Virus record (IMG/VR): IMGVR_UViG_3300045988_054362
Location: 1-35,819 of that record
Source of the DNA: a virus
Reading direction: 5' to 3' (one strand)
Length of the DNA: 35,819 nt
The position numbers and the translations under genes were made by a program. Of the stretch, positions 1,865-34,023 are shown one piece after another; position 1 is the stretch's first letter; each line of letters opens with the position of its first letter. Below the pieces are notes generated by a model. That model was not told the origin of the DNA. It saw nothing but the letters and a program-made list of their open reading frames with translations, and searched no databases.

Positions 1865-2052
1865 GTTGTATTCAAGAAATGAAATCATTGTATATAAACG
1901 ATTCTTACAAAGGCAAATGTTACAAATGGAACACGGATGATTTATTAATGTATTTATATGTTGATGAACGAGTTATAGCAATCCCATTGAAATATGATGT
2001 GAGTTTAAAAGAAACAGACAATCGTATTGATATTAAAGTATGTCGAAACTAG
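1861..2052 (+). CDS. Hypothetical protein
   Basis: ATG at 1861 follows GGGAGG and overlaps the previous stop (ATGA). Confidence 0.5.
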   Translation: MSCIQEMKSLYINDSYKGKCYKWNTDDLLMYLYVDERVIAIPLKYDVSLKETDNRIDIKVCRN

Positions 2053-2118
2053 CCAATAGGCTAGTCTGCTAGAGATGACCTACTAGCACTGATGATGACA
2101 GGTCATGGAGGTGAAACA

Positions 2119-5417: not shown

Positions 5418-5773
5418 GAGAGCAAGAAATGGCAATAAATGTAGCAAAACAAATTTATTTTGATAATATAGAGAATTTTTACAAAATTGCAAATGAGCGA
5501 AACGAAAACGCAAGCGCAAATGATTTATTTAACGAAGCAGAAACATTCAGACAGATAACGAAACAGTTTATATTAAGAGCTAAAACAATCTGCTCGTATA
5601 CACGTGAGAAATTAAATGAAGTAAGAGTTATATGTATTTACAGAGGACTTGAAGAAGAAGGATATATAAGCGATACGCAATTTATAGAATATCTAAAATA
5701 CACCGACAAGATTATTGATGAAATTCTAAAGCAAGTCGTAGTGCTTGGAGGTGAGCAAAATAGCAGTAATTAG
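5414..5773 (+). CDS. Hypothetical protein
   Basis: ATGA overlap with rusA. 119-aa ORF. Confidence 0.55.
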   Translation: MREQEMAINVAKQIYFDNIENFYKIANERNENASANDLFNEAETFRQITKQFILRAKTICSYTREKLNEVRVICIYRGLEEEGYISDTQFIEYLKYTDKIIDEILKQVVVLGGEQNSSN

Positions 5774-6488
5774 AATTATTAAGAACAAAAACTATACAGT
5801 GATGAGCAATACACATTTAAAAGATAAACGCTTATCACTAAAAGCAATAGGCTTATTAAGTGTTGTTCTTAGTTTACCGGATAATTGGCATTATACAGTG
5901 AATGGATTAGTTGGAATTGTAAAAGACGGTGAAAGAGCAGTAAATGGGGCATTATCTGAATTAAAGGAAAATGGATATTTAAGAATAGAAAAACTTTATC
6001 CAAATAAAGAGGGAAGAAGTAAAATTGAATATCAATATATTTTCAGTGAAACACCTCAAGACCTACAAAATGTAGGTCTACATAATGTAGGACTACAAGA
6101 TGTAGGTTTACAAAATGTAGGTACTTATAAAAATACTAATAAACCAAATACTAATAAATTAAATACTAATAAACAAAGTAAACATAAATATGGAGAATAT
6201 TCACACGTGTTACTTACAGATAAAGAACACACACACCTATTAGATTTATATGGTGATTCATTAGATGAGCATATAAAGATATTAGATGAATATATTGAAA
6301 CGAGTGGAAAGAAATATAAAAATCATTCACTCGTGATTCAGAAGTGGGTACATGATGAATGGACTAAAAGAAATAAAGATAAGCCTATCACACTTGATTC
6401 AAAGTTTTACGCAGAGCAAAGCACAAAGACAGATAAAGAAGTACAAGATGAATTTAATAGGCTTAGAGCACAACTATTTGGAGCATAA
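5760..6488 (+). CDS. Replication initiator / replisome organiser (N-terminal wHTH, C-terminal DnaD-like domain); probable ATA start
   Basis: NYTVMSNTHLKDKRLSLKAIGLLSVVLSLPDNW is typical of a phage replication-protein N-terminus. The C-terminal part (VLLTDKEHTHLLDLYG ... KYKNHSLVIQKWV) is DnaD-like. GGAGG lies 8 nt before ATAGCA at 5760. The TTG 5745 and GTG 5751 alternatives sit inside the SD. Confidence 0.7.
   Translation: MAVIRIIKNKNYTVMSNTHLKDKRLSLKAIGLLSVVLSLPDNWHYTVNGLVGIVKDGERAVNGALSELKENGYLRIEKLYPNKEGRSKIEYQYIFSETPQDLQNVGLHNVGLQDVGLQNVGTYKNTNKPNTNKLNTNKQSKHKYGEYSHVLLTDKEHTHLLDLYGDSLDEHIKILDEYIETSGKKYKNHSLVIQKWVHDEWTKRNKDKPITLDSKFYAEQSTKTDKEVQDEFNRLRAQLFGA
6062..6175. repeat. Putative phage origin: four 15-bp iterons plus three 15-bp AT-rich repeats inside the initiator gene
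   Basis: NCTACAnnATGTAGG occurs four times in tandem (6062, 6077, 6092, 6107), each with a CTACA/TGTAG inverted core. AAATACTAATAAAnn follows three times (6131, 6146, 6161). All are in frame (LQNVG and NTNK peptide repeats). Confidence 0.7.
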
Positions 6489-7484: not shown

Positions 7485-7742
7485 ATGATTAATTGGATTT
7501 GTGGAGCTATATGTGGAAGTGGTGCAACACTTCTTCTATATAGCCTAATGGTAGGAAAAAGGATTCAAGAAGAACAGGATAAAGCTACGAAATGTATCTT
7601 CAAGTATGAAGAATACAGAAGAAGAATCAGAACGCTTGAATATCAAAACAAAGAACTAGAAAAAAGAATAATAGAATTACAAACGAAGCACGGTGAAGTC
7701 GTAAGCGTTGAATATTATTCGGATTTTGATGAGGTGAAATAA
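7485..7742 (+). CDS. Small membrane/coiled-coil protein
   Basis: ATG follows GAGGTG. N-terminal hydrophobic helix followed by a K/E-rich coil. Confidence 0.55.
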   Translation: MINWICGAICGSGATLLLYSLMVGKRIQEEQDKATKCIFKYEEYRRRIRTLEYQNKELEKRIIELQTKHGEVVSVEYYSDFDEVK

Positions 7743-7827
7743 ATGGATTACTTAAAGCCAAAAAAAAGAAGAAAAATGTAATAAATGCAAATATGAATAT
7801 TTATCAGAATGTGAACATCCTTGTATC

Positions 7828-11161: not shown

Positions 11162-11356
11162 ATAGAAATGAATTATGAAGAAAGGATTAAAGAGTTAATT
11201 TCAAAGAATAATAAATTAGGAAGGACAAATATTAAGCTTAATCAGACTATAAAAGAAAGAAGCGAAACAATTCATACTCAAGCTAAAGAAATCAAGAAAT
11301 TAAGAAGTGAAGTTGGCGAATTAAAGGATAGATTGTATAAGGTATACAGTTCATGA
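11162..11356 (+). CDS. Small coiled-coil protein (start ATA 11162 at 8 nt from AGGAGG, or ATG 11168)
   Basis: Track ORF 11153-11356. The GTG at 11153 lies inside the SD. Confidence 0.5.
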   Translation: MEMNYEERIKELISKNNKLGRTNIKLNQTIKERSETIHTQAKEIKKLRSEVGELKDRLYKVYSS

Positions 11357-11679
11357 GTACATATGAAGATGTAAAACGACACTTCTTGTGTGAATGCCAA
11401 TCATACACATACTATGAGCAAAAGATAGCAGAGCTACAAAGGGATGAAGCTATTTATCCTTTAAAAGCCGAGCTATTCTTGGCTCATGCAGATTATGCAA
11501 GAAGAATGAACTATGTAAAAGACAAATTAAGCCAACTTGATGATACGACTCGAGCCATGATTGAGTATAGATATATAAAGGGATTCAGTGCAGAAAAGAC
11601 ATCTAATATTGTAGGTTATGCACGAGAAGAAATTCCAAGAAAAATAAACAAGAACTTAAAGAAAGTGCTCACAATGTGA
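11353..11679 (+). CDS. ArpU/RinA-like late-gene transcriptional activator (sigma region-4-like HTH)
   Basis: The C-terminal part (IEYRYIKGFSAEKTSNIVGYAREEIPRKINKNLKKV) resembles sigma-70 region 4. Its position immediately upstream of the packaging genes fits this family. Confidence 0.6.
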   Translation: MSTYEDVKRHFLCECQSYTYYEQKIAELQRDEAIYPLKAELFLAHADYARRMNYVKDKLSQLDDTTRAMIEYRYIKGFSAEKTSNIVGYAREEIPRKINKNLKKVLTM

Positions 11680-11688
11680 GCATTTTTT
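11667..11688 (+). terminator. Intrinsic terminator overlapping the stop codon of the late regulator
   Basis: GCTCAC (11667-11672), loop AAT, GTGAGC (11676-11681), then ATTTTTT. Confidence 0.6.
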
Positions 11689-11705: not shown

Positions 11706-11781
11706 AGCAGGATAGAGCAGTAGTAGCTCGTCGGTCTTATTAGCCGAAGGTCGAACGGTGCAAATCCTTCTCCTGCAACCA
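11706..11781 (+). tRNA. Initiator-type (tRNA-fMet-like) tRNA with anticodon UAU
   Basis: Hand-folded cloverleaf. Acceptor stem AGCAGGA/TCCTGCA with an A1xA72 mismatch. D-stem GAGC/GCTC (A11:U24). Anticodon stem TCGGT/GCCGA with loop CTTATTA (anticodon TAT at 11738-11740). Variable loop AGGTC. T-arm GAA(C)GG-TGCAAAT-CCTTC. Encoded ACCA end. Long blocks are identical to bacterial tRNA-fMet as I recall it. Confidence 0.7.
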
Positions 11782-11863: not shown

Positions 11864-11888
11864 ACCGAGCGTTTGTCTCGGTTCTTTT
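11864..11888 (+). terminator. Intrinsic terminator downstream of the tRNA
   Basis: ACCGAG (11864-11869), 7-nt loop, CTCGGT (11877-11882), then TCTTTT. Confidence 0.6.
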
Positions 11889-11906
11889 AATAATAAGGAG
11901 GAGAAT

Positions 11907-12185
11907 ATGGGTTCAAAAGAATTTCAAGAATTAGCAATGAATGCAGTATTTCGAGTAAACCCAAATATTGCAATCAGTGAAATGTTCGTTGTATGGATGG
12001 TTAAAGTACTTCAAAACAATAAAGCATTGATTAGTGCTATGAGCACGGATGATTATTATGAAGTAACGTATAACGGCGATAAAAATGAATTATACGTTGA
12101 TGAATACAAGGGTGATAAAACAGAAACTATTAGATTAAAGATTGATGACATCGCACATTACGAAAAGAATGCACCACAAAGTTGA
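11907..12185 (+). CDS. Hypothetical protein upstream of terminase
   Basis: ATG follows AAGGAGGAG at 5 nt. 92 aa. Confidence 0.6.
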   Translation: MGSKEFQELAMNAVFRVNPNIAISEMFVVWMVKVLQNNKALISAMSTDDYYEVTYNGDKNELYVDEYKGDKTETIRLKIDDIAHYEKNAPQS

Positions 12186-12242
12186 TTTGGAACATTGCAC
12201 ACCAAAAATATTGAGTGATAAATATAGAAAGGGGATGTAATA

Positions 12243-12629
12243 ATAGCGAATGGAAAAGTTGGAAGACCTAACAAGGATTTCGACAAAGAAGAATTTGAAA
12301 AATTGTTAGCTATTCAATGCACGCAAGCAGAAGTATGCTACTTTTTTAACACGACAGATAAGACATTATCAAATTGGTGTAAACGTACATATGGAACTGA
12401 TTTCTCCGAATGTTTAAAAAGGTTCGGCGCACAAGGAAGAATTTCGTTACGAAGAGCGCAATTTAAACTTGCTTCAAAGAGTCCTGCAATGGCTATTTTC
12501 TTAGGAAAACAATTCCTAGGTCAAACTGATAAGGTAGAAACACACTTTGACGCTTCAGAAGTAAATGCAATTAATAAAGCTATGATTACAGATGTAGCAA
12601 AAGAAAGAAGAATTGAAGATTTTGAATAA
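12243..12629 (+). CDS. terS: Terminase small subunit (ATA start)
   Basis: GRPNKDFDKEEFEKLLAIQCTQAEVCYFFNTTDKTLSNWCKR is an N-terminal HTH typical of TerS. The frame opens at 12228 after a TAG. GGGGA lies 7 nt before ATAGCG at 12243. The first canonical codon (TTG 12303) would cut the HTH. Confidence 0.7.
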   Translation: MANGKVGRPNKDFDKEEFEKLLAIQCTQAEVCYFFNTTDKTLSNWCKRTYGTDFSECLKRFGAQGRISLRRAQFKLASKSPAMAIFLGKQFLGQTDKVETHFDASEVNAINKAMITDVAKERRIEDFE

Positions 12630-13947
12630 GCCTGCGCCTTTTAATCAAAAGCAATTAGCTTATCTTAAAAGAACATTTGATTCATGGCTTAATGTGTTAG
12701 AAGGTGGGAAACGTGGAGGAAAGAACGTACTCAACACATACGCTTTCTGTATAGCGTTAGAAACACATCCGGATAAGTTTCATTTAATAGCAGGAACAGA
12801 TACATCATCTGCACGTGTAAACATTGGAGATTGTAATGGATACGGATTGCAAAACTACTTTGCGAATAGATTCAAGGTAGGGAAGTATGAAGGTAAAGAT
12901 TGCTACTACATCAACACAAAGGTTGGCGAAAAGGTTGTATTCTTTGCCGGTGGTGCTAAGAAAGGCTCAGAGAATGCAATACATGGATATTCATACGGCA
13001 TGGCTTACATTACCGAAGCAAATTTATGTTGCATTGAATTCTTACAAGAAGTAATGGATAGAACGATAGCTTCAAGCAATCGAAAGATATTTCATGATTT
13101 AAACCCCAAAGGCAAGAATCATTGGTATTACATAGATTTCTTAAAGTATCATGAGGAGCAACAGAATAAAGATTCTACATATGGTTATAACTATGGGCAT
13201 ACCACCTTAGTTGACAATTATTCTTTAAGTGATGAGCAGATAAGAACGGTCTTGAAATCATACGATAAGAATAGTGTTTATTACAAAAGAGATATAAAAG
13301 GACAAAGGGAAGAAGCCGAAGGACTTGTATTCCCTTATTTTGCTAATGACTGCAAACCTTACCTATTCAAATATCAACATTTAAAAGAGAAGATGAAAGA
13401 ACAAGGAAAAAGGTTCAGTCATTTAATCATAGGAGTTGACTTTGGAGACAATGGCTCGAAATATTCTTGGCATTTAACAGGATTCACAAATGATTGGGAT
13501 TATATGTGGGCACTTGATGAAGGAGATATGGCAAAGTCAAATGCAATAGACGCAACAAAGTTCTGCAAAGCATTTGTAAGATTCTATAAGCGTTGTATTG
13601 AATGTTACGGATATGTAGAATGGATATTTCCGGACAGTGCTTCTAATACGTTGATAAACACGCTTAGAGCTTATTTTTACGCCGAAGGATTAGACGGAAG
13701 TATAATTGCACCGGTCAAGAAGAATGAGCTTACAGACCGTCCTATAACGGTTGATAGCTTACTTGTTACAGGTAGATTGAAAATAGAAGAACATTGTAAG
13801 AACTTAATAAACGCATTGAGCGAATTAGTATGGGATGAAAAGAAAGACATTCCAAAAGATGAGAACGTAAACAATATCAATGATGATTGGGATTCGTTCT
13901 GCTATACATTTATCACACATAGTGGATATATAGATTTAAGGAGGTAA
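12613..13947 (+). CDS. terL: Terminase large subunit (PBSX/XtmB-like)
   Basis: 444 aa with a Walker-A-like GGKRGGKN, an ATPase plus nuclease architecture, and the position after terS. TTG start overlapping the terS end. Confidence 0.85.
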   Translation: MKILNKPAPFNQKQLAYLKRTFDSWLNVLEGGKRGGKNVLNTYAFCIALETHPDKFHLIAGTDTSSARVNIGDCNGYGLQNYFANRFKVGKYEGKDCYYINTKVGEKVVFFAGGAKKGSENAIHGYSYGMAYITEANLCCIEFLQEVMDRTIASSNRKIFHDLNPKGKNHWYYIDFLKYHEEQQNKDSTYGYNYGHTTLVDNYSLSDEQIRTVLKSYDKNSVYYKRDIKGQREEAEGLVFPYFANDCKPYLFKYQHLKEKMKEQGKRFSHLIIGVDFGDNGSKYSWHLTGFTNDWDYMWALDEGDMAKSNAIDATKFCKAFVRFYKRCIECYGYVEWIFPDSASNTLINTLRAYFYAEGLDGSIIAPVKKNELTDRPITVDSLLVTGRLKIEEHCKNLINALSELVWDEKKDIPKDENVNNINDDWDSFCYTFITHSGYIDLRR

Positions 13948-13950
13948 GAA

Positions 13951-15354
13951 ATAGAAACATCTAACACACGTAGACCGTGGTTTCAGAATTACCTAAACGA
14001 TAGAGGGTATTATGTAGATACAAATGCAATTGAGATTATTGAATTGTGTAATAAGTGGTATACAAATACCGAAACAGAATTTCATACGGCATATACCTTG
14101 AACAATGAGGAATACACGTTGGATAAGACAGACTTTGCAAAGCGTTTATGTGAGGATGACGCAAATCTCATTGAAATCCTAGATATAAACGCAACCGAGG
14201 ACAGTGCCACAAATGACATTATTTCAGACATTCTAAACAAGAATAGGTTTGATGTAATGTACAGGAAACAAGTTGAGCAAATGTCTGCAAATGGTACGGT
14301 AGGAGCTTATGTAACGGTATCAAATGCCGAGATTTATGAAGATGGTACATTCAGTGGAGGAGAAATCAGAATCAATTATTGTGATTCAATGAATATCCTT
14401 CCATTAACTGTTATCAATGATGAAATTGTGGAAGTGGCTTTCGTTGGAGTAAATTATGAGAAGTTAAAAAAAGTATATGTGATGGTCATGTTCTTAAAAG
14501 GACAAGACGAAAGATATATTGCAGAAACACATTACTTTAAAGATACAGGCGAAGAAATAAAAGACCGTGCTCAAATTGTTCAATTAGATGTAGTTAAGCC
14601 GTTTGCAATTATGAGAAACGCAAAGGTAAACAACTTACAAATGCAAGGTTACGGCTTACCGAAGATTTGGAGCGCAATTGCTCCACTAAAAACAATTGAT
14701 TTAACAATGACAATGTGGAATCGAGATTTGTTGAAATCAGATAAAATCGTTCTTGTGAATGAAGCATTAATGCAGAAAGACAAGGATGGAAAAGTAAAAC
14801 AGAATCCACAATTAAAGAATATCTTTGTTCAGTTAGGTAGAGATAAGCTACCGGAAGAAAAAGCTTTATGGCAAGAATATAATCCGACAGTTAGAACGGC
14901 AGAAGTTGTGCAATCACTAGAAACGGCGTTAAGTATCTTATCAATGATGTTTGGATTCGGTACAAAGAAATACACGTTTGAGAGTGGAAGAATTGTGACG
15001 GCTACAGAATATATCGGCGAAAACCAAGACGCAATGAAGGAAGTAAATGCACAACGTAAAGAATCTACGGCATATATTCAAGATATTATTCAAGCAATAG
15101 CGTACTTCTATGAATTGACACAAGGCAGAAAGCTTAATATCAATTCATTAGACATTGCTATTGATTATGACGATACATATATCGAGGATAAACAAAGCAC
15201 GGCACAAGCGTTAAGGAATGACGCATTAACATTTGATATTCCAAGATTGAAGATTATGTACTTTATGAAACAATACGGTTTCACAGAAGAAGAAGCAACG
15301 GAGTTATTAAATGAAGAAATTCAAGATGATGGAGAGGGGGATGACGAAGAATAG
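13951..15354 (+). CDS. Portal protein (SPP1 gp6-like), ATA start
   Basis: Size and position match a portal. AGGAGG (13939-13944) lies 6 nt before ATA 13951. The frame opens one codon earlier, at the terL stop. 31 codons have no ATG/GTG/TTG before TTG 14044, which lacks an SD. Confidence 0.8.
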   Translation: METSNTRRPWFQNYLNDRGYYVDTNAIEIIELCNKWYTNTETEFHTAYTLNNEEYTLDKTDFAKRLCEDDANLIEILDINATEDSATNDIISDILNKNRFDVMYRKQVEQMSANGTVGAYVTVSNAEIYEDGTFSGGEIRINYCDSMNILPLTVINDEIVEVAFVGVNYEKLKKVYVMVMFLKGQDERYIAETHYFKDTGEEIKDRAQIVQLDVVKPFAIMRNAKVNNLQMQGYGLPKIWSAIAPLKTIDLTMTMWNRDLLKSDKIVLVNEALMQKDKDGKVKQNPQLKNIFVQLGRDKLPEEKALWQEYNPTVRTAEVVQSLETALSILSMMFGFGTKKYTFESGRIVTATEYIGENQDAMKEVNAQRKESTAYIQDIIQAIAYFYELTQGRKLNINSLDIAIDYDDTYIEDKQSTAQALRNDALTFDIPRLKIMYFMKQYGFTEEEATELLNEEIQDDGEGDDEE

Positions 15355-16157
15355 CAACTACATATTTTCCATTTGTATCAAGAAATGGCGATAGATTAGT
15401 CTTATATGACGCTTTCAGAAGATTGTTCTCAAGTTACTTCACAAATGGAGTGTTCGTAGACGATTCTAGTTCAGACCATTTAAGAGTTGAGAAAGCTCAA
15501 GGCTTAACGCTTACAGTTAAGGCAGGACGAGCAAATATTAATGGAGCGTTCTATTGGCAGAAAGATGACGAAACCATCACACTAGAAAAGAATAGTGCTA
15601 CTAAAAGCTACAATATTATTCTTAGGTTGAATGATAATGACGCATACAGAAACATTTCCTTAGTAGCAAGTGATATTAATAGTGGAATTACAAGAAGCGG
15701 TTCTATTTATGATTTAGTATTAGCTACAGTTACAGTTGAAGGAAGCGCAAGTGAAATCAAAGGCTCAAGTATCACTGATACAAGGTTAGATTCAACACGT
15801 TGTGGAGCAGTTACAAATGCCATAAAGAGTGTTGAAACATTAGATTTATTTACGCAAATGACCGAACTATTCAAAGAAGTAAAAGAGCAGAATCAATCTG
15901 AAATGAGTGCAAATGAAAATGAATTCAATGAATGGTTCGCAAGCGTAAAAGATACGTTGGATTCAAATACCGCAGGTAAGTTAATGAACCGAATTGCAAA
16001 TGTAGAACAAATGCTTATGAATAACCATTTCACTACGATTCTATTAACAGAAGATGGAACACTAGTGGATGAGAACGGTCATGAAATACTAGCCGATTGG
16101 GCGTATGAAGTTGAGTCGGGTGAAGTAGGTACAGATTGGACTTACAAGGTGAAATAG
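15351..16157 (+). CDS. Fibre/receptor-binding-module structural protein, ATA start
   Basis: ATAGCA overlaps the portal stop (aATAGca). The frame opens at 15345. The N-terminus (TTYFPFVSRNGDRLVLYDAFRRLFSSYFTNGV) resembles the conserved fibre-base N-termini of Gram-positive phages (from memory). Confidence 0.55.
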   Translation: MATTYFPFVSRNGDRLVLYDAFRRLFSSYFTNGVFVDDSSSDHLRVEKAQGLTLTVKAGRANINGAFYWQKDDETITLEKNSATKSYNIILRLNDNDAYRNISLVASDINSGITRSGSIYDLVLATVTVEGSASEIKGSSITDTRLDSTRCGAVTNAIKSVETLDLFTQMTELFKEVKEQNQSEMSANENEFNEWFASVKDTLDSNTAGKLMNRIANVEQMLMNNHFTTILLTEDGTLVDENGHEILADWAYEVESGEVGTDWTYKVK

Positions 16158-21662: not shown

Positions 21663-22532
21663 ATAGCAAATGAAATTGCATTAGCTAAAACGTATGTCTC
21701 AAATCTTGATGAGGTTTACAAATTAGCTTCAGTAACAGGTGATTTAAACGCCGACGCTACAATGGTTAGAGCAGGAGCAAACGCAAAAGAAATCATCTAT
21801 CCACAGATTGCCGTTAAAGGTTTAGGAAACTACGACAGAAACAATGGTTATACATCTAACTCAGTTAAATTGGAATGGAAAACTGCAACATTCGACTACG
21901 ATAGAGGAACTAAAATCTCAGTTGATACACAAGACAATGCAGAATCAATGAATATTGCGTTCGGTAGAGCAGGAGCAGAATTAATGCGTACAAAGGTAGC
22001 ACCGGAAGCGGACGCTTACACATTCGCTAAAATTGCCGGTACAACAGGAATCACAAAAGTTTCAGAAGATTATGCAAGTGCAGAAGAGTTCTTGAGTGCA
22101 TTGTTAAAAGCGGTTACTAAAATGGATGAGGATGAAGTGCCAAGTGAACAACGTATCTTGTATTCTACTCCTACATTATTGAATAGCGTTAAAGCTTTAG
22201 ATACTTACAAATCACGTGAAGCTTTACAAGGATTCGCAAAGGTAGTTCCTGTACCTGCTAGTCGTTTCTATACAAAGATTAAATTGTTGAGTGGAGCAGA
22301 TACAGAAGCAGAAGGTGGATATACTAAAGCAGAGGATGGACACGTTATCAACTTCTTGATTGTTCATAAACCTTCTGTTATGAAATGGGATAAACACACT
22401 GTTTCAAATGTAATTCCGGCAAGCAATAACATTGAATCAGATTCAGATGTATTGAAATATCGTAAGTATGGAATCGTTGATGTATACGCAAATAAGGTAG
22501 CAGGTATTTACTTATCTGCTAGTGCTAAGTAA
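21663..22532 (+). CDS. Major capsid protein, ATA start
   Basis: AAGGAGG lies 8 nt before ATAGCA at 21663. The frame opens at 21660 after a TAA. 33 codons (ANEIALAKTYVSNLDEVYKLASVTGDLNADAT) precede the first ATG (21762), which has no SD. Confidence 0.8.
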   Translation: MANEIALAKTYVSNLDEVYKLASVTGDLNADATMVRAGANAKEIIYPQIAVKGLGNYDRNNGYTSNSVKLEWKTATFDYDRGTKISVDTQDNAESMNIAFGRAGAELMRTKVAPEADAYTFAKIAGTTGITKVSEDYASAEEFLSALLKAVTKMDEDEVPSEQRILYSTPTLLNSVKALDTYKSREALQGFAKVVPVPASRFYTKIKLLSGADTEAEGGYTKAEDGHVINFLIVHKPSVMKWDKHTVSNVIPASNNIESDSDVLKYRKYGIVDVYANKVAGIYLSASAK

Positions 22533-23779: not shown

Positions 23780-24195
23780 CAGTATCAAAAGCATTGATTC
23801 AGTGGCTATATGGCTATGGAAATATACAGATAGATGAACGTATTGAAACGGATGTTTTAGCGCAACAAGCTATCTCTTATGCATTGTATAAAGAACCTAA
23901 TGCAATTGTAGATACATACATTGACGGCTCTCAAATGCGTACTGAATACTACACATTTCTAGCTCGTAGGAATACACAGATTGAATCAGAAAGACAAGAC
24001 AATAATGTTTTTCTAGAAGAATTAGAAAATTGGATTGATGAAAAGAATTTAAACGGAGAATTGCCACAACTAGACGGAAACAGATATTGTCAAGATGTTT
24101 CCGTTTCAAGTGGTTTATATCTATATACAAATGAGGATAATCAAGCAGTATATGCGTTGACTATTCAAATTAAATACAGAAAGGAGCTTAATTAA
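23776..24195 (+). CDS. Tail completion protein candidate
   Basis: ATGA overlap. It sits immediately upstream of the major tail gene. Confidence 0.4.
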   Translation: MTVSKALIQWLYGYGNIQIDERIETDVLAQQAISYALYKEPNAIVDTYIDGSQMRTEYYTFLARRNTQIESERQDNNVFLEELENWIDEKNLNGELPQLDGNRYCQDVSVSSGLYLYTNEDNQAVYALTIQIKYRKELN

Positions 24196-24701
24196 TAGCA
24201 ACTCAAGGAACTGAAGTAAATACAGGACAGACAGTCAAGAAGTATATGATTGGATTGTTCTTAGAAATGGGAACAGGTTACAAGCGAATTAAGAAGTCTA
24301 CAACTTTAGATATTTCGTTTAACAGTGAAACTGAAACGTATGACTTTATCGCAGATAAGAACCCAACAGAATCATTAAAGAGTTATTCACCTCAGATTTC
24401 GCAAGATTTAACAATGATTAAAGGCGAAGATGATTTTGAATACATTTACGAACAAATGATGAAATCCGTACCAAACAACGAAGAAGTAAATACAAAAGCT
24501 TTACTTGTATTCATGTTTGACGGAGACAAAACTAAAGGCTATAAAGCGTGGGAAGTTGACGCTAAATTGATTTTCGATACATTAAGCGGTGTCGATTCAA
24601 AAATCAACTTCAATATTAACTTTGCAAGCGATATTCGTGTCGGTGCTGCAAAGGTAGCAGATGGAACAGTAACCTTCACAGAAGGTACATCAGAAGTATA
24701 A
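24195..24701 (+). CDS. Major tail protein, probable ATA start
   Basis: AAGGAG lies 8 nt before ATAGCA at 24195, in a TAATA overlap with the upstream stop. The frame opens at 24192. The first ATG (24246) lacks an SD. Confidence 0.6.
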   Translation: MATQGTEVNTGQTVKKYMIGLFLEMGTGYKRIKKSTTLDISFNSETETYDFIADKNPTESLKSYSPQISQDLTMIKGEDDFEYIYEQMMKSVPNNEEVNTKALLVFMFDGDKTKGYKAWEVDAKLIFDTLSGVDSKINFNINFASDIRVGAAKVADGTVTFTEGTSEV

Positions 24702-25662: not shown

Positions 25663-28242
25663 ATATCAGACGGAACATTAAAGTTTGATACAAAGATTGA
25701 TACAAGTGGTCTAGAGAATGGACTGAAATCCGTTCATGAAGTCACAAGTGGAGCTACAAATGCTATCAAAGAAACTTCAAAAGCGATTGATAAGTTAGGT
25801 TCTGATGGTTCAAAAGCACCACCAAAGATTAGAGATAAACTTAAAGATTTAAACGAAGAGCAAAAGAATACACAGACAGAAACGCAAGAAACAGGTTCTA
25901 AATTTGATGTATTTAAACAAGTAGGAAACAGTGCCTTAGAATCAATTCAAGGTGGATTTGATGGACTATTAGGAAAGATTCAGAATATTAGTCCGGAAGC
26001 TTCTGCAATCACTGAAACATTAACAGGATTAGGAGTTGGAGGTGTTGTAGGTGTTACTGCCGTAGCAGGAGCTATCGGTGGTATGGCACTAGCAATTAAG
26101 ACAGGTGTTAACCAAGCTACAGAACTAGATGACGCTATGGCTAAATTCCAAGCTCAGACAGGTGCTTCAAGCAATGAAATGAGCAAATTTAAAAACATTG
26201 CTCGTGATGTTTGGTCTAATAATTTTGGTGAAGATATTTCAGATGTTGCCGATATGATGGGCAGAGTCAAGCAACAAATGCAAGGCATAAGTGACGTTGA
26301 CCTAAAGAACGTGACCGAGGATTTATTAACTTTAAGAGATACATTTGATATGGATGAGAATGAAACTCTTAGAGGTGCTCAACAATTAATGAAGCAATTC
26401 GGAATCACTTCTCAAGAAGCTTTCGACCTTATGGCTACAGGTGCTCAGAATGGTTTAAACAAATCAGATGAGTTAGGCGACAACATTTCAGAATACTCCG
26501 GTAAATTCGCACAAGCAGGATATTCGGCAGATGAATATTTCCAATTAATGCAGAATGGATTAGATGGTGGAGCTTATAACCTTGATAAAGTTAATGACGC
26601 AATCAACGAAGTTACCACAAGGTTAGTTGATGGAACTATTGAAGGAGCTTTAGATAGTTTTGATACCAAAACACAAGATGTATTTAAGGCATGGCAAGAA
26701 GGAAGAGCAACTCAAAAAGATGTTGTGAATGCGATTGTAGAAGATATTTCAAAGACTACAAATGAACAAGAAAAGTTGAATAAATCTGCAACGGCTTTCG
26801 GCACAATGGGAGAAGATTTCAACGCCGGATTCATTCAGTCCTTAACGACAGTAGGGAATAAATATAAAGACGTAGAAGGGGCAATGGATAAAGTTAAAGA
26901 TATCGCAAATGGTGGCTTAAAGAACGCTTTAAGTGGCTTAGGACGCGCATTTCTTGATTCATTTACTCCAATAGGCGAACTTATTACCCCTATTCTTGCA
27001 GGCATTGTAGGATTAATTACAGTAGCAATTCAAGGCATTCAACAAGGATTTGCTAAAGTTGGTGATGTAATTTCAAGCGTATTAAGTAAGATTGATACAA
27101 GTGGAATTACAGAATTAACAAATCAAGTTTCCGAAGTGTTAGCTCCTGCGTTTGATGAAGTTAGAAAAGCTATTGATGAAATGAAAGTTGCGCTTGAACC
27201 TATTGCAAAAGAAATCTTAGGTAAAATTGGTAACGCAATTCAAAATGTTGTTAACCAAGCTCAAAAGATTCTTAGCGTTGTAGGACCACCGATTCTAGCA
27301 ATCATTAAGAAGATTATTCAAACAGTTATCGGTATGATTCCTGTAATAACATCTATTCTTCAAGTAGTTGGAAGTGTGGTAAGTGGAATCATTTCATTTA
27401 TAACTATGGTTGTGAAGTATGTCGGAACTGCAATTGCAACAATACTAGGATTTATCATGCCTATTGTTCAAATTGTTGCTACAATCGTAGCGAATATTTG
27501 GTCTGTAATATTAACGGTTGCTCAAAATATTTGGAGCAAGATTAGCGAAGTGGTTACTGCAATTATTGGATTTGTCAACAATTTGTTTAAGACGGTTTCG
27601 GATATCATAAACAATATTTGGAGCAAGATTCAAGATACAATGAACAGAGTAGGAGATAAAGTTAAAGGTGTTATTGATAATATCAATAAATATTTCAATA
27701 ATATCAAATCTACGGTTTCTGATGTATTCAATGGCATTTGGGCTAAAGTTCAAGGTGTAATGGATAATGTAGGAAATAAAATTTCAAATGTTTTACAAGG
27801 AATACAAAATTCATGGAGTGGTTTAAAAGGATTTGTAAGTGGTGTATTTGGTGGAATTGAAGGAGCAGTTAGTTCGTTAGTTGGAAGTGTAAAAGGAATG
27901 GTAAATGGTGTTATCGGTGGCATTAACGGTGCAATCGGTATCATCAATAAGATTCCCGGAGTTCACATTGGAAAGATTCCAAGACTAGAGCGTGGTGGTG
28001 TATTGAAGCGTGGCCAAATCGGTTTATTAGAAGGTAATGGAGCAGAAGCGGTTGTACCTTTAGAAAGAAATAAAGCATGGATTCGTGCCGTAGCTAAAGA
28101 TATGGCTCAAATCATGCCTAGTGTAACCACAAACAACAATGGGCAGACTATCAACTTCTACAATAAAGCTCAAAGTCCGGATGAAATCGCTCGAATGTTA
28201 CGCATGCAGGCAAGATATGGATATGGAGGTGTAGTTCAATAG
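25663..28242 (+). CDS. Tape measure protein, ATA start
   Basis: There is an in-frame TGA at 25660-25662, then ATA. GGAGG lies 11 nt upstream. 140 codons have no ATG/GTG/TTG before ATG 26083. The N-terminus (SDGTLKFDTKIDTSGLENG) is TMP-like. Long helical/hydrophobic repeats (NIWSKI...) follow. Confidence 0.8.
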   Translation: MSDGTLKFDTKIDTSGLENGLKSVHEVTSGATNAIKETSKAIDKLGSDGSKAPPKIRDKLKDLNEEQKNTQTETQETGSKFDVFKQVGNSALESIQGGFDGLLGKIQNISPEASAITETLTGLGVGGVVGVTAVAGAIGGMALAIKTGVNQATELDDAMAKFQAQTGASSNEMSKFKNIARDVWSNNFGEDISDVADMMGRVKQQMQGISDVDLKNVTEDLLTLRDTFDMDENETLRGAQQLMKQFGITSQEAFDLMATGAQNGLNKSDELGDNISEYSGKFAQAGYSADEYFQLMQNGLDGGAYNLDKVNDAINEVTTRLVDGTIEGALDSFDTKTQDVFKAWQEGRATQKDVVNAIVEDISKTTNEQEKLNKSATAFGTMGEDFNAGFIQSLTTVGNKYKDVEGAMDKVKDIANGGLKNALSGLGRAFLDSFTPIGELITPILAGIVGLITVAIQGIQQGFAKVGDVISSVLSKIDTSGITELTNQVSEVLAPAFDEVRKAIDEMKVALEPIAKEILGKIGNAIQNVVNQAQKILSVVGPPILAIIKKIIQTVIGMIPVITSILQVVGSVVSGIISFITMVVKYVGTAIATILGFIMPIVQIVATIVANIWSVILTVAQNIWSKISEVVTAIIGFVNNLFKTVSDIINNIWSKIQDTMNRVGDKVKGVIDNINKYFNNIKSTVSDVFNGIWAKVQGVMDNVGNKISNVLQGIQNSWSGLKGFVSGVFGGIEGAVSSLVGSVKGMVNGVIGGINGAIGIINKIPGVHIGKIPRLERGGVLKRGQIGLLEGNGAEAVVPLERNKAWIRAVAKDMAQIMPSVTTNNNGQTINFYNKAQSPDEIARMLRMQARYGYGGVVQ

Positions 28243-29111
28243 ATATCAATAAAGTAAGAGTTATTGTCCGTAGGGATGATGGAAAAGAATTTGAAATCGA
28301 CAACCAAAAAAGATGGAAGATTCCTTCAAGTAGTGGTTTAGATGGATTTGATTATGTAGCACCTTCATATACAACTCAAGACAATGCATTCGGAAACGGT
28401 GCTAGATTAATCGGTTCACGTATTCCTACAAAAGAAAGAAGCGTGAAAGCTACCTTTAAAGGCTCACTAGAAGAAAAAAGAGAAGAAAGGGAGAAGCTAC
28501 GGCGCTTCTTCCAATATTCTCATATATTTGATGTGATAGTCGAGTACATGGGAGAAAAGAAATATTGCAGAGGTAGATTATATGCGTATAGCTTACCAAC
28601 TGCTAACATCTACAAAGAATTAGAACTTGACTTTACGATATTATGCACACAACCTTTATTACTTTCATTTGATGATTTTGCAATGAATATTGCAGAAATT
28701 GGGGAAGGTTTAGCGTTCAATTTTGAAATACCGGAAACAGGCGTAAACTTTGGAACATTTACATTCGCTAGAGAAATCTATATTGATAATCAAGGCGATA
28801 CAGAAACATACTGTAGAGCAGTTATTGAAGCATTTGGAGATGTAACGAATCCAAAACTATTCAATAAAGATAAATATATTCGTGTATTAGATACACTACA
28901 CAATGGTGATGTATTAGAAATTGATTTAGTTTCTGAGCCTATTTCGATTAAAAAGAATGGTGTGAATTGTATCGGCAAAGTTGACAGAACCTCATCATTC
29001 AATGATATGACGATTCATTTAGGTGAGAATATCATAGGATATACGGCAGACAATGGAGATACGAATCTAGCTTGCACGGTTTATTACAATGAAAGGTATT
29101 TAGGTTTATAG
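28239..29111 (+). CDS. Distal tail protein (Dit), ATA start
   Basis: ATAGAT overlaps the TMP stop (caATAGat). GGAGG lies 9 nt upstream. 68 codons without a canonical start precede GTG 28443 and encode a typical Dit N-terminal domain. Confidence 0.7.
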   Translation: MDINKVRVIVRRDDGKEFEIDNQKRWKIPSSSGLDGFDYVAPSYTTQDNAFGNGARLIGSRIPTKERSVKATFKGSLEEKREEREKLRRFFQYSHIFDVIVEYMGEKKYCRGRLYAYSLPTANIYKELELDFTILCTQPLLLSFDDFAMNIAEIGEGLAFNFEIPETGVNFGTFTFAREIYIDNQGDTETYCRAVIEAFGDVTNPKLFNKDKYIRVLDTLHNGDVLEIDLVSEPISIKKNGVNCIGKVDRTSSFNDMTIHLGENIIGYTADNGDTNLACTVYYNERYLGL

Positions 29112-30138: not shown

Positions 30139-30651
30139 ATAGAAAAGAAAAATGGAGGATTTAAACAAATAGCAAGAAGTATGTTTTTTCTAGATAAGAT
30201 TAATGCAATGTGTGGTGTTGCCGTAGCCGTATTAACATACGTATTAGGTGAACATTGGTATTTATTCGCATTCTTCTTATTTATGAATGTAGTGGATTAT
30301 ATTACAGGGTGCATGAAATCGGCTATCGCTCATAAAATCAATAGCAACAAAGGTTGGACAGGTGTTTTAAAAAAGCTAGGCTATTGGATTATGATTGTTG
30401 TTGCGTTCACATTTAGTGCATTTCTAGTAGAAGTAGGAGAAATTCTAGGAATTGATTTCCATGTATCTACATTGTTAGGTTGGTTTGTGTTAGCTTCGTT
30501 ATGTATTAATGAATCTCGTAGTGTTATGGAGAATTTATTACAATGTGGTTACAATGTACCAAAAGCATTAACTAAAGGATTAGAAGTAGCAGATAAACTC
30601 ATTAACGAAAACGAAGAACAAGACAATGACGAATCAAGTACCTTGGAATAA
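30139..30651 (+). CDS. Holin (LL-H/phiLC3 family); start ambiguous (ATA 30139, ATA 30169 or ATG 30181)
   Basis: Three hydrophobic helices and the DYITG motif. AAGGAG lies 8 nt before ATAGAA at 30139. The listed GTG 30130 is inside the SD. Confidence 0.7.
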   Translation: MEKKNGGFKQIARSMFFLDKINAMCGVAVAVLTYVLGEHWYLFAFFLFMNVVDYITGCMKSAIAHKINSNKGWTGVLKKLGYWIMIVVAFTFSAFLVEVGEILGIDFHVSTLLGWFVLASLCINESRSVMENLLQCGYNVPKALTKGLEVADKLINENEEQDNDESSTLE

Positions 30652-33261: not shown

Positions 33262-34023
33262 ATAAATTATCAAAATTTCAAAAAAGCCGTATTAGGCAAA
33301 GCATTCGACATTGACGGATACTATGGTTCGCAATGTTGGGACGGATTCGCAAAGTACATGATTGATTTAGGCTATCAAGCTATTCATTGCACAACGAGTA
33401 AATTTGTTAAGGACATTTGGAACAACAGAAAGACAAACGGAATCTTAAACTACTGCAATGAAGTTTCAATTATGCAACCTGGAGACATTGCCGTCTTTAA
33501 AGAAGTAGCAGGATGGACGCCATACAGTCATATTGCTATTTTTGATTCAGATATTGACGGTAAATTTGGATGGTTCTTAGGACAGAACCAAGGTGGAAAG
33601 AATGGAGCATTTACACTTTGCAAATTGCCTTATTACGCAACGTTTGATACCGCATTTAGACCTAAATGTTTCGCAAATAGTGGAGCTACAAGTCCAAGCA
33701 TTCCACAACCTGTGGAAGCAATCGACCAAATCTTACACGCAGGAAGTTACGTAACATCAGTTCAAATGAAGATTGGCAATCAAGGATTGAAAAACATCAA
33801 TAACGAGACTTGTGCTTATTTACCACAATTAGGCGGTTTGTTTCCAATTCGTATGGTTGACAAAGTTCGCTATTCTGATGGATATAATGATAACGTATTG
33901 CATACAACAAATGCCGTTGTCTATGTAACTAGAATTCGTGTTGATGAAGTCAATGTGCAAAAGAATCTTGCAAAAATCGGTGGAATTTGGGTAAATTGTG
34001 ACCCATTAATTGAAGTAGCATAA
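33262..34023 (+). CDS. Endolysin, N-terminal CHAP amidase/peptidase plus a C-terminal wall-binding domain, ATA start
   Basis: The CHAP motifs are DIDGYYGSQCWDG (catalytic Cys), YSHIAIF (His) and LGQNQGG. The Cys is encoded at about 33334, upstream of the first ATG (33358). The frame opens at 33247. GGAGG lies 9 nt before ATA 33262. Confidence 0.8.
   Translation: MNYQNFKKAVLGKAFDIDGYYGSQCWDGFAKYMIDLGYQAIHCTTSKFVKDIWNNRKTNGILNYCNEVSIMQPGDIAVFKEVAGWTPYSHIAIFDSDIDGKFGWFLGQNQGGKNGAFTLCKLPYYATFDTAFRPKCFANSGATSPSIPQPVEAIDQILHAGSYVTSVQMKIGNQGLKNINNETCAYLPQLGGLFPIRMVDKVRYSDGYNDNVLHTTNAVVYVTRIRVDEVNVQKNLAKIGGIWVNCDPLIEVA

Follow-up and report, generated by a model that had tools for sequence, protein, structure and literature searches.

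The analysis of a 35,819-nt window of viral DNA, the whole of the IMG/VR record IMGVR_UViG_3300045988_054362, centres on a 76-nt tRNA gene on the plus strand (positions 11706-11781; AGCAGGAUAGAGCAGUAGUAGCUCGUCGGUCUUAUUAGCCGAAGGUCGAACGGUGCAAAUCCUUCUCCUGCAACCA) that joins an initiator-type scaffold to the anticodon UAU. In the same phage, about ten to eleven genes carry ATA where a start codon would be expected. We consider it probable that the gene encodes a phage-borne initiator tRNA decoding AUA start codons; we infer this from the conserved initiator marks of the tRNA taken together with the behaviour of engineered initiators, which start at the codon complementary to their anticodon. A first-pass annotation of the sequence had proposed an initiator scaffold reading AUA, and this proposal is supported by the invariance of the initiator marks, by the ATA-start genes and by the co-occurrence of the tRNA and ATA starts in five lineages.

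An initiator-type tRNA with a UAU anticodon

The cloverleaf is the minimum-free-energy fold of the 76-nt sequence, with all four helices formed. Infernal accepts it as a member of Rfam RF00005 (49.1 bits against a gathering score of 29, E = 1e-7, span 11706-11778), and a custom covariance model (R1) gives 97.6 bits. Each structural element that had been drawn by hand in the first-pass annotation, including the stems, the loops and the encoded CCA, is present, and the Infernal comparison, which that annotation had proposed as a check, places UAU at the anticodon position in the same register (11738-11740). In the window allele, the acceptor stem AGCAGGA/UCCUGCA leaves A1 and A72 unpaired, U8 is followed by the D-stem GAGC/GCUC, which yields A11:U24, and the anticodon stem UCGGU/GCCGA closes the loop CUUAUUA (CTTATTA in the DNA, 11736-11742, with U37 at 11741). 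A variable loop AGGUC and a T-arm of GAA(C)GG, UGCAAAU and CCUUC follow, the latter with an extra base in the 5' strand of its stem.

The departures from consensus that had been pointed out at the start, namely U31-G39, the bulged C of the T-stem and G55 together with A18, are all found in the window allele. Its elbow is therefore not the canonical one (G18 G19 with T54 Psi55 C56 and a regular 5-bp T-stem), given a D-loop AGUAGUA, a T-loop UGCAAAU with G55, and the bulge. ARAGORN, another of the proposed checks, made no call in the window, the probable reason being the bulge in the T-stem together with G55 in the T-loop; in homologues with a canonical T-arm (loci L039, L145, L146 and L147) it reports a tRNA with anticodon tat. 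The canonical elbow is present in the alleles of these four loci and of a fifth, L160.

A side observation on the elbow concerns three separate lineages of phage tRNA, two of which have CAU (window 11719-11725 with 11759-11765; L096 7522-7596; L013 6999-7074). In these, the D-loop AGUAGUA, with A in place of G18, is always accompanied by a UGCAAxx T-loop, with G in place of Psi55. Alleles with G18G19 have a UUCxAxU T-loop. From this comparison of loops, the co-occurrence of A18 and G55 looks like covariation of the elbow's tertiary pair, and its recurrence in the CAU relatives L013 and L096 suggests that such covariation is tolerated.

The nearest E. coli sequences are metZWV, three tandem tRNA-Met genes between mltA and amiC, with 79.2% identity over positions 2-76, which bears out the likeness to E. 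coli tRNA-fMet that had been pointed out in the first-pass annotation. In the phage collection, the matches are CAU initiator genes only, at 78-81% identity, among them a Salmonella initiator and the initiator in a Listeria-phage record. The formyltransferase and P-site determinants of tRNA-fMet comprise the 1x72 mismatch with pairs 2:71 and 3:70, and the G:C pairs of the anticodon stem (PMC5389676). Positions 1 and 72 are never paired: the window and its close relatives have AxA, L146 and L147 have CxA, and L160 has GxA. The other six acceptor pairs are always paired in the seven aligned sequences, three of them co-varying. The formyltransferase determinants G2:C71, C3:G70 and A73 are invariant in all seven of these sequences as well as in L160. 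The pair A11:U24, which defines initiators, is A:U in 7/7 (alignment columns 11 and 25), and G30:C40, U31-G39 and A73-CCA are invariant across the homologues. Thus the marks at 1x72, 2:71, 3:70, 11:24 and 73, which had been listed as retained in the window, hold across diverged homologues while other stem pairs co-vary. The corresponding claim for the anticodon stem stood only in part, since G30:C40 is invariant and G29:C41 is replaced by A29:U41 in the majority allele.

The loop itself departs from the CAU and A37 of an initiator, CUUAUUA giving UAU and U37. The two changes that had been read from the window, C34 to U and A37 to U, are constant, every allele seen having UAU and then U37; the whole loop is CUUAUUA except in L146 (UUUAUUU).

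Conservation of the locus was examined by way of the upstream open reading frame (ORF) of 108 amino acids (aa) at 11353-11679, which has counterparts of 96-100% identity in 36 IMG/VR contigs. In every one of these, the tRNA occupies the position that it has in the window, with the same hairpin ahead of it. Ten more ENA/Logan contigs have the tRNA at this place, for a total of at least 46 contigs. There are 13 distinct UAU alleles, the window's own and 12 in relatives. In the majority allele, the anticodon stem CUAGU/GCUAG replaces UCGGU/GCCGA through three double compensatory changes, and a minority allele (L039 and further copies) has the canonical T-arm GGAGG UUCAAAU CCUUC and the D-loop AGUGGUG. 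These observations were further strengthened by an alignment of seven distinct sequences, in which 99.3% of cells are paired and 13 of the 20 stem pairs have changed on both sides; neither value was reached in any of 500 shuffles, and shifted registers drop to 38-53% paired. The first-pass argument for selection on a folded RNA, as opposed to decay, is confirmed by these values and by the dozens of contigs: the tRNA gene is selected and is not debris.

More distant carriers were found through portal homologues at 55-61% identity (L145, L146 and L147); of these, L145 resides as a prophage in a cultured isolate, Amedibacillus sp. YH-ame6 (GCA_053848845.1). A further UAU tRNA, on a contig of 43% GC (L160), came from a metagenome scan. 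A loose pattern search for U37 in IMG/VR gave two chance matches (L152 and L153), and a scan of genome contigs with a pattern specific to the window allele gave only CAU initiators and one CCU variant. Close relatives carrying the same gene with CAU, and only ATG starts, would have spoken against the proposal and were looked for; the close relatives all have UAU and ATA starts, and CAU versions are confined to more distant phages (L096, L151). Moreover, the related phages L096, L097, L115 and L151 have a CAU form of the same scaffold, so that the UAU form probably evolved from a phage-borne initiator; phage-borne CAU versions agree with it in the 5' half and also in the A18/G55 elbow.

Several other initiator-like genes were seen alongside this family. 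A 62-kb high-GC phage contig (L005, 9631-9709, minus strand) has an initiator-like tRNA with the loop CUUAUAA, that is, UAU with A37, a G1-U72 pair and no encoded CCA, which judging from its sequence may represent an independent origin of the AUA-reading form. Beside the CAU initiator-like tRNA of L096 lies an aberrant tRNA-like gene of about 85 nt (7736-7821, plus strand), which ARAGORN reports as 'tRNA-???' with a two-base anticodon (gg) and which scores 33.5 bits with the Rfam tRNA model. A CCU-anticodon, AGG-reading version of the same scaffold (A1xA72, G2:C71, C3:G70, A11:U24) occurs in an IMG/VR phage (L104, 8127-8201, minus strand) and, also with U37, in a Lachnospiraceae metagenome-assembled genome (L017, 4983-5056, plus strand). 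L104 has two candidate AGG starts, one in the portal ORF (phrog_12 from residue 2) and one in an ORF with AGGAGG, 9 nt and AGG; the portal start is ambiguous given an out-of-frame ATG 8 nt upstream, and it is known from one contig only. These sequences contain hints of AGG-initiating versions.

ATA as a start codon in phage genes

About ten to eleven genes of the phage have a strong Shine-Dalgarno sequence followed after 6-11 nt by ATA, with no in-frame ATG, GTG or TTG nearby. The window contains 35 GGAGG sites ahead of an ORF of at least 60 codons, of which 20 have a canonical start at a spacer of 4-11 and 15 are orphans. ATA lies at a spacer of 6-11 in nine of the 15 orphan sites (binomial P ~8e-7), the runner-up codon occurring three times, and the six orphan sites without ATA are inside genes.

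The genes concerned, all on the plus strand, include those for packaging and the head. TerS (12240/12243-12629) has two tandem ATA codons after AGGGGA, with the first canonical start 20 codons on and a PHROG profile that aligns ahead of it; in relatives, gene callers report a 46-aa fragment only. The portal gene (13951-15354) has AGGAGG, 6 nt and ATA, a site that is kept in 41 locus matches; the match to phrog_533 begins at residue 22, ahead of the first canonical start (residue 32), and full-length homologues of other phages start 'ME..' exactly at the window's ATA-GAA. In the head-protein gene that follows (15351-16157; phrog_1220, residues 3-229; first canonical start at residue 25), ATA overlaps the portal stop (ATAG), and the third codon varies synonymously among relatives (ACT, ACA, ACC), as expected for translated sequence. 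The major head protein gene (21663-22532) has AGGAGG, 8 nt and ATA, and the match to phrog_422 covers residues 2-288 (profile 2-294 of 297) with the first canonical start at residue 34.

The tail and lysis genes follow the same pattern. The ATA of a probable tail protein gene (24195-24701) overlaps the preceding stop (TAATA), and its PHROG alignment (phrog_3099, function unknown; residues 10-167, profile 4-169 of 171) begins ahead of the first canonical start. For the tape measure gene (25663-28242), ATA is the first codon after an in-frame stop, behind AAAGGAGGTGG; phrog_58 aligns from residue 7 and the first canonical start is at residue 141. The distal tail protein gene Dit (28239-29111) overlaps the tape-measure stop with its ATA (ATAG), phrog_33 aligning from residue 30 and the first canonical start lying at residue 69. 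The endolysin gene (33262-34023) has AGGAGG, 9 nt and ATA, with phrog_291 over residues 2-78 (profile 5-86) and the first canonical start at residue 33. The ATAG and TAATA overlaps mirror the familiar ATGA and TAATG coupling motifs.

Upstream of the tRNA, a gene for a 64-aa coiled-coil protein (11162-11356) has AGGAGG, 8 nt and ATA; this site has 79 locus matches, and among the 12 upstream contexts listed the upstream sequence is mosaic and the Shine-Dalgarno sequence, 7-8 nt and ATA are always kept. Two further ATA starts are probable. One belongs to a replication-initiator-like gene (5760-6488; HTH_36; TGGAGG, 8 nt and ATA; phrog_11718 residues 2-99, profile 2-99), for which an alternative TTG five codons upstream lies within the Shine-Dalgarno sequence and is missing in some relatives. 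The other belongs to a holin-family gene (30139-30651; AAGGAG, 8 nt and ATA; Phage_holin_4_1 match on a homologous gene), for which the alternative is a GTG directly against the Shine-Dalgarno sequence. Taken together, the profiles and the conservation indicate that ATA, the codon cognate to the anticodon, is used as a start; this evidence concerns the codon, and from the sequences we infer that the UAU tRNA reads those starts.

The consequences for annotation are visible in public gene calls, which are N-terminally truncated in relatives (L086-L088, L136, L137) because gene callers disallow ATA starts: the portal is given as 436 instead of 467 aa, TerS as 46 aa, the tape measure as 719 instead of 859 aa, and Dit as 187 instead of 290 aa. 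The truncated portal forms a cluster of its own (P0046, 436 aa) with 1406 member sequences. In each genome of this phage group, a common one in human gut metagenomes, about ten genes are thus truncated or missed by standard gene callers. In another frame, a start codon followed by three stops, ATG TAA TAA TAG (window 12235-12246; ATG CAA TAA TAG in a variant allele), overlaps the Shine-Dalgarno sequence and the ATA-ATA of TerS; on the basis of this overlap, it may be a start-stop element affecting TerS initiation.

Five lineages have both the tRNA and ATA starts, and three related control phages have neither. Specifically, the portal genes of L145, L146 and L147 have GGAGG, 7-9 nt and ATA, and in L145 the capsid and tape-measure genes do likewise. 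The portal gene of L160 has AAGAGG, 7 nt and ATA, with phrog_533 aligning from residue 15 and the first canonical start about 104 codons downstream, and further tRNA-bearing metagenome contigs show the same ATA-start pattern. Among the controls, L149 and L150 (portals 52-55% identical, 33-36% GC) have no tRNA within 10 kb, as judged by Rfam at E up to 1 and by the custom covariance model, and L151 has a CAU initiator-like tRNA instead of a UAU one. The portals of all three start with ATG, and their orphan GGAGG sites, 35 in number, are all without ATA. Of the host's genes, the seven beside the prophage were checked, and each has ATG behind a Shine-Dalgarno sequence.

The base at position -1 was also compared. 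It is A in 9/9 of the scan-detected window ATA starts versus 12/18 of the ATG starts, and the remaining ATA-start genes listed for the window have A there too. At the distant loci (L145, L146, L147, L160), A is found in six of eight ATA-bearing orphan sites, and the L160 portal start, which lies outside the scan, also has it; with A the most frequent base at -1 in any case, the comparison carries modest statistical weight. In E. coli, complementarity between position 37 of the initiator and position -1 of the mRNA raises expression, an A37U mutant included (PMC10018350).

Proposed decoding of AUA starts and alternative readings

The steps by which such a tRNA could act may be outlined as follows, with formylation, the amino acid, the 37/-1 pairing and the regulatory benefit all being deduced from sequence features. 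Transcription of the tRNA would come from a small unit with a terminator-like hairpin at either side, immediately ahead of the packaging and late-gene region. Given its fMet-like acceptor end, A11:U24 and G30:C40, formylation, handling by IF2, avoidance of EF-Tu and placement in the P site would be expected. There, UAU would pair with AUA, which would turn an ATA behind a Shine-Dalgarno sequence into an efficient start for the ten to eleven genes, and the change of A37 to U probably adds a fourth pair with A at -1 (A-AUA with UAUU), strengthening an all-A/U helix. The amino acid is most likely isoleucine, attached by isoleucyl-tRNA synthetase (IleRS) through its reading of the anticodon; this is the default guess because methionyl-tRNA synthetase (MetRS) depends on C34. 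The benefit to the phage might be a start codon that it alone can use well, so that without the phage tRNA the genes for capsid, packaging and lysis would go untranslated. Demand for the major capsid, tail and portal proteins is high, and their dependence on the host CAU initiator mis-reading AUA is unlikely.

A number of points weigh against an AUA-decoding initiator. U37 stacks poorly beside an all-A/U codon-anticodon helix, and MetRS should not accept U34. The identity pairs of IleRS are, by E. coli rules, absent from this tRNA: the E. coli-type pairs are C4:G69, U12:A23 and C29:G41, although rules may differ in Erysipelotrichaceae, and the window has A4:U69, G12:C23 and G29:C41. The three G:C pairs typical of the initiator anticodon stem (29:41, 30:40, 31:39) are incomplete, being G:C, G:C and U-G in the window allele and A:U, G:C and U-G in the majority allele. 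Mycoplasmas and alpha-proteobacteria do have natural initiators with au/GC/gu stems, but these retain a purine at position 31 (PMC5389676); U31-G39 was also seen here in CAU initiators of several bacteria and phages. In addition, the bulged T-stem and the G55 with A18 of the window allele could impair folding or factor binding, and ARAGORN rejects this allele. At least two ATA-start genes of the early/middle region (5760 and 11162) precede the tRNA, so that a simple late-gene switch misfits some cases, and the link between the tRNA and the ATA starts, drawn from comparison of genomes, is correlative.

The usage of AUA inside genes belongs to the same side of the balance, since a role in elongation would also explain it: internal AUA reaches 17.2 per 1000 codons in the phage versus 8.0 per 1000 in a small sample of 1615 host-flank codons, about twofold, and in the TerL gene (12613-13947, plus strand) ATA makes up 17 of the 28 Ile codons, with a genome-wide share of 21%. 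On this account, the main alternative, the gene would encode an ordinary elongator tRNA-Ile(UAU) for internal AUA codons, and the ATA starts would be weakly read by the host initiator. ARAGORN labels the homologues tRNA-Ile(tat), and temperate phages of Latilactobacillus commonly carry an AUA-decoding tRNA-Ile, usually with CAU and once with UAU (PMC10688831). We nonetheless regard an elongator as unlikely. The anticodon UAU would fit an AUA-decoding tRNA-Ile, but the Watson-Crick 1:72 pair and the purine 37 (t6A37) of such tRNAs are missing, mismatch and U37 being invariant; U37 rules out the t6A37 typical of ANN-reading tRNAs. A 1x72 mismatch disfavours EF-Tu binding, and this mismatch and A11:U24 are conserved here as initiator marks in a tRNA whose nearest sequences are initiator genes. 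An elongator would also leave unexplained why the abundant major head, tail and portal proteins should rely on a poorly read start, and why ATA starts occur only in the tRNA-carrying phages.

A further alternative is a tRNA-like RNA that decodes nothing, acting either as a decoy or cleavage-resistant substitute against anticodon-loop nucleases of the host, or as an RNase P/Z signal that splits early from late transcripts. The U34/U37 loop and the odd elbow (A18/G55 and the bulge) are unusual for a working tRNA, the gene lies at an operon boundary between two terminator-like hairpins, and phage tRNAs with altered loops are reported as proposed to evade tRNA-targeting defences (PMC10264068). Such a function would not require diverged lineages to keep UAU invariant and to retain the encoded CCA, A73 and the determinants of formylation; it does not predict the co-occurrence with ATA starts, and the T- and D-arms of L039, L145-L147 and L160 are fully canonical. 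We therefore hold it to be very improbable. The least credible account, to which we give almost no weight, is a functionless remnant of a captured host tRNA-fMet or of an attachment site. Phages often integrate into tRNA genes, and both the consensus departures (bulged T-stem, G55, U37) and the silence of ARAGORN in the window would suit decay. The gene is, however, full-length and about 11 kb from the integrase/attP end, the prophage junction lies beside ecfA and not at a tRNA gene, and dozens of contigs in several lineages combine compensatory changes with an invariant UAU and U37; a remnant was rejected on position and covariation.

Structurally, the proposed AUA-decoding initiator is to be grouped with the bacterial initiators, although two of their hallmarks are missing from it, namely CAU with A37 and the complete series of three G:C pairs. 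With bacterial tRNA-fMet (E. coli metZWV and metY; the phage CAU forms of L096, L097 and L151) it shares the cloverleaf, the 1x72 mismatch, G2:C71, C3:G70, A73, A11:U24 and G30:C40, and it differs in UAU, U37, the U-G pair at 31:39, the A:U pair at 29:41 in most alleles and, in the window allele, the bulged T-stem; its presumed start codon is AUA and its amino acid is probably not methionine. Engineered initiator anticodon mutants (amber CUA, GAU, GAC, AAC and others) follow the same principle, by which a change of anticodon redirects initiation, and three reports describe initiation of engineered tRNA-fMet at the complementary codon (PMC11744186, PMC3643588, bioRxiv 10.1101/2021.05.25.445580). 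Those are laboratory constructs, whereas the present case is natural, viral and conserved, and comes with a matching set of ATA-start genes.

Elongator tRNA-Ile(UAU) of Mycoplasma mobile and Lactiplantibacillus plantarum (PMC3575796) has the UAU anticodon and the AUA codon in common with the phage tRNA, and the Latilactobacillus prophage tRNA-Ile (PMC10688831) shares AUA decoding and its occurrence in temperate phages of low-GC Bacillota. For those elongators, pairing at 1:72, A37 and a D-stem unlike that of initiators would be expected; here, initiator marks are found and the codon stands at start sites. Mitochondrial tRNA-Met (f5CAU) offers AUA initiation by a dedicated tRNA, according to PMC2655697 and PMC11775629; there, AUA serves as a start and as internal Met through modification of C34, whereas here U34 is encoded in the gene and the setting is a bacterial virus. 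A similar logic is found in phage biology itself. Phage suppressor tRNAs recode stop codons in late genes, so that a phage tRNA changes the reading of one codon and a set of genes is translated only in its presence; suppressors act in elongation at stop codons, whereas the present tRNA would act at initiation on a sense codon.

The first-pass annotation knew of no natural initiator scaffold with an AUA-reading anticodon, and literature searches agree with it: on natural non-AUG phage initiators they gave engineered systems only, and neither a natural phage initiator with an anticodon other than CAU nor a systematic use of ATA starts by phages was found, in a coverage that leaves out most subscription journals, so that an earlier description is possible. 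If the AUA-decoding initiator is real, it would be the first known natural virus-borne initiator with a changed anticodon, accompanied by key genes with a matching non-AUG start, an arrangement previously known only as laboratory 'orthogonal initiation'. Start-codon reassignment would then join suppressor tRNAs and stop-codon recoding among phage controls of translation. It would also provide a natural test bed for whether IF3 and the P site judge pairing or AUG itself, for the number of G:C pairs needed, for the fourth pair between 37 and -1, and for formyl-isoleucine protein starts. The existence of a cultured lysogen, Amedibacillus sp. YH-ame6, makes the idea directly testable. As a tentative extension, which we regard as possible though somewhat doubtful, start-codon reassignment by phages' own initiator tRNAs might be a general and unrecognised strategy, with UAU plus U37 and A-AUA forming a four-base signal that the phage alone can use, a translational lock that would silence capsid, packaging and lysis genes before the tRNA is made, atop transcriptional control.

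Genomic setting of the tRNA gene

The window belongs to a temperate siphophage of Holdemanella (Erysipelotrichaceae) with a genome of about 38 kb and 33% GC. In one contig, the right end of the prophage abuts ecfA1-ecfA2-ecfT-truA-rplM-rpsI, where L13, S9 and TruA are identical to the proteins of Holdemanella porci/biformis. The terminase of the phage (TerL) is at most 41% identical to that of any deposited phage, which leaves it without an annotated close relative, and when the surrounding 1.6 kb were compared with known phages at the DNA level, the tRNA itself was the only match. The protein neighbouring the tRNA is indexed in 174 blocks of the sequence collection.

Upstream of the tRNA, a terminator-like hairpin (TGCTCAC-AAT-GTGAGCA followed by TTTTTT, 11666-11688, plus strand; listed by the scan as a palindrome on the minus strand) ends the early/middle operon, holds the stop codon of the 108-aa ORF and is kept in relatives. 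This ORF (11353-11679, plus strand) begins with ATG and has no Pfam match; its positional equivalent in L147 has a weak match to Sigma70_r4_2, and it is possibly a late-gene regulator. No convincing sigma-70 promoter turned up immediately ahead of the tRNA in the promoter scan. The terminator scan places a second hairpin (ACCGAG-CGTTTGT-CTCGGT and a T-run, 11864-11889, plus strand) about 85 nt downstream of the tRNA, and on this side the tRNA adjoins a variable region and the packaging genes.

Between the tRNA and TerS, the variable region forms a hypervariable slot for cargo genes (window 11900-12300; about 200-3000 nt past the tRNA in L083-L092). Depending on the relative, it contains DUF6275, ParB_N, TAGT (transglycosylase family), a 435-aa protein, QueT or an acetyltransferase, a content that suggests 7-deazaguanine DNA-modification modules. 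In the early region of the phage, a match to the Rfam ribozyme family Hammerhead_II (RF02276) lies at window positions 2041-2107 on the plus strand, with 37.8 bits against a gathering score of 37 (E = 2.5e-4).

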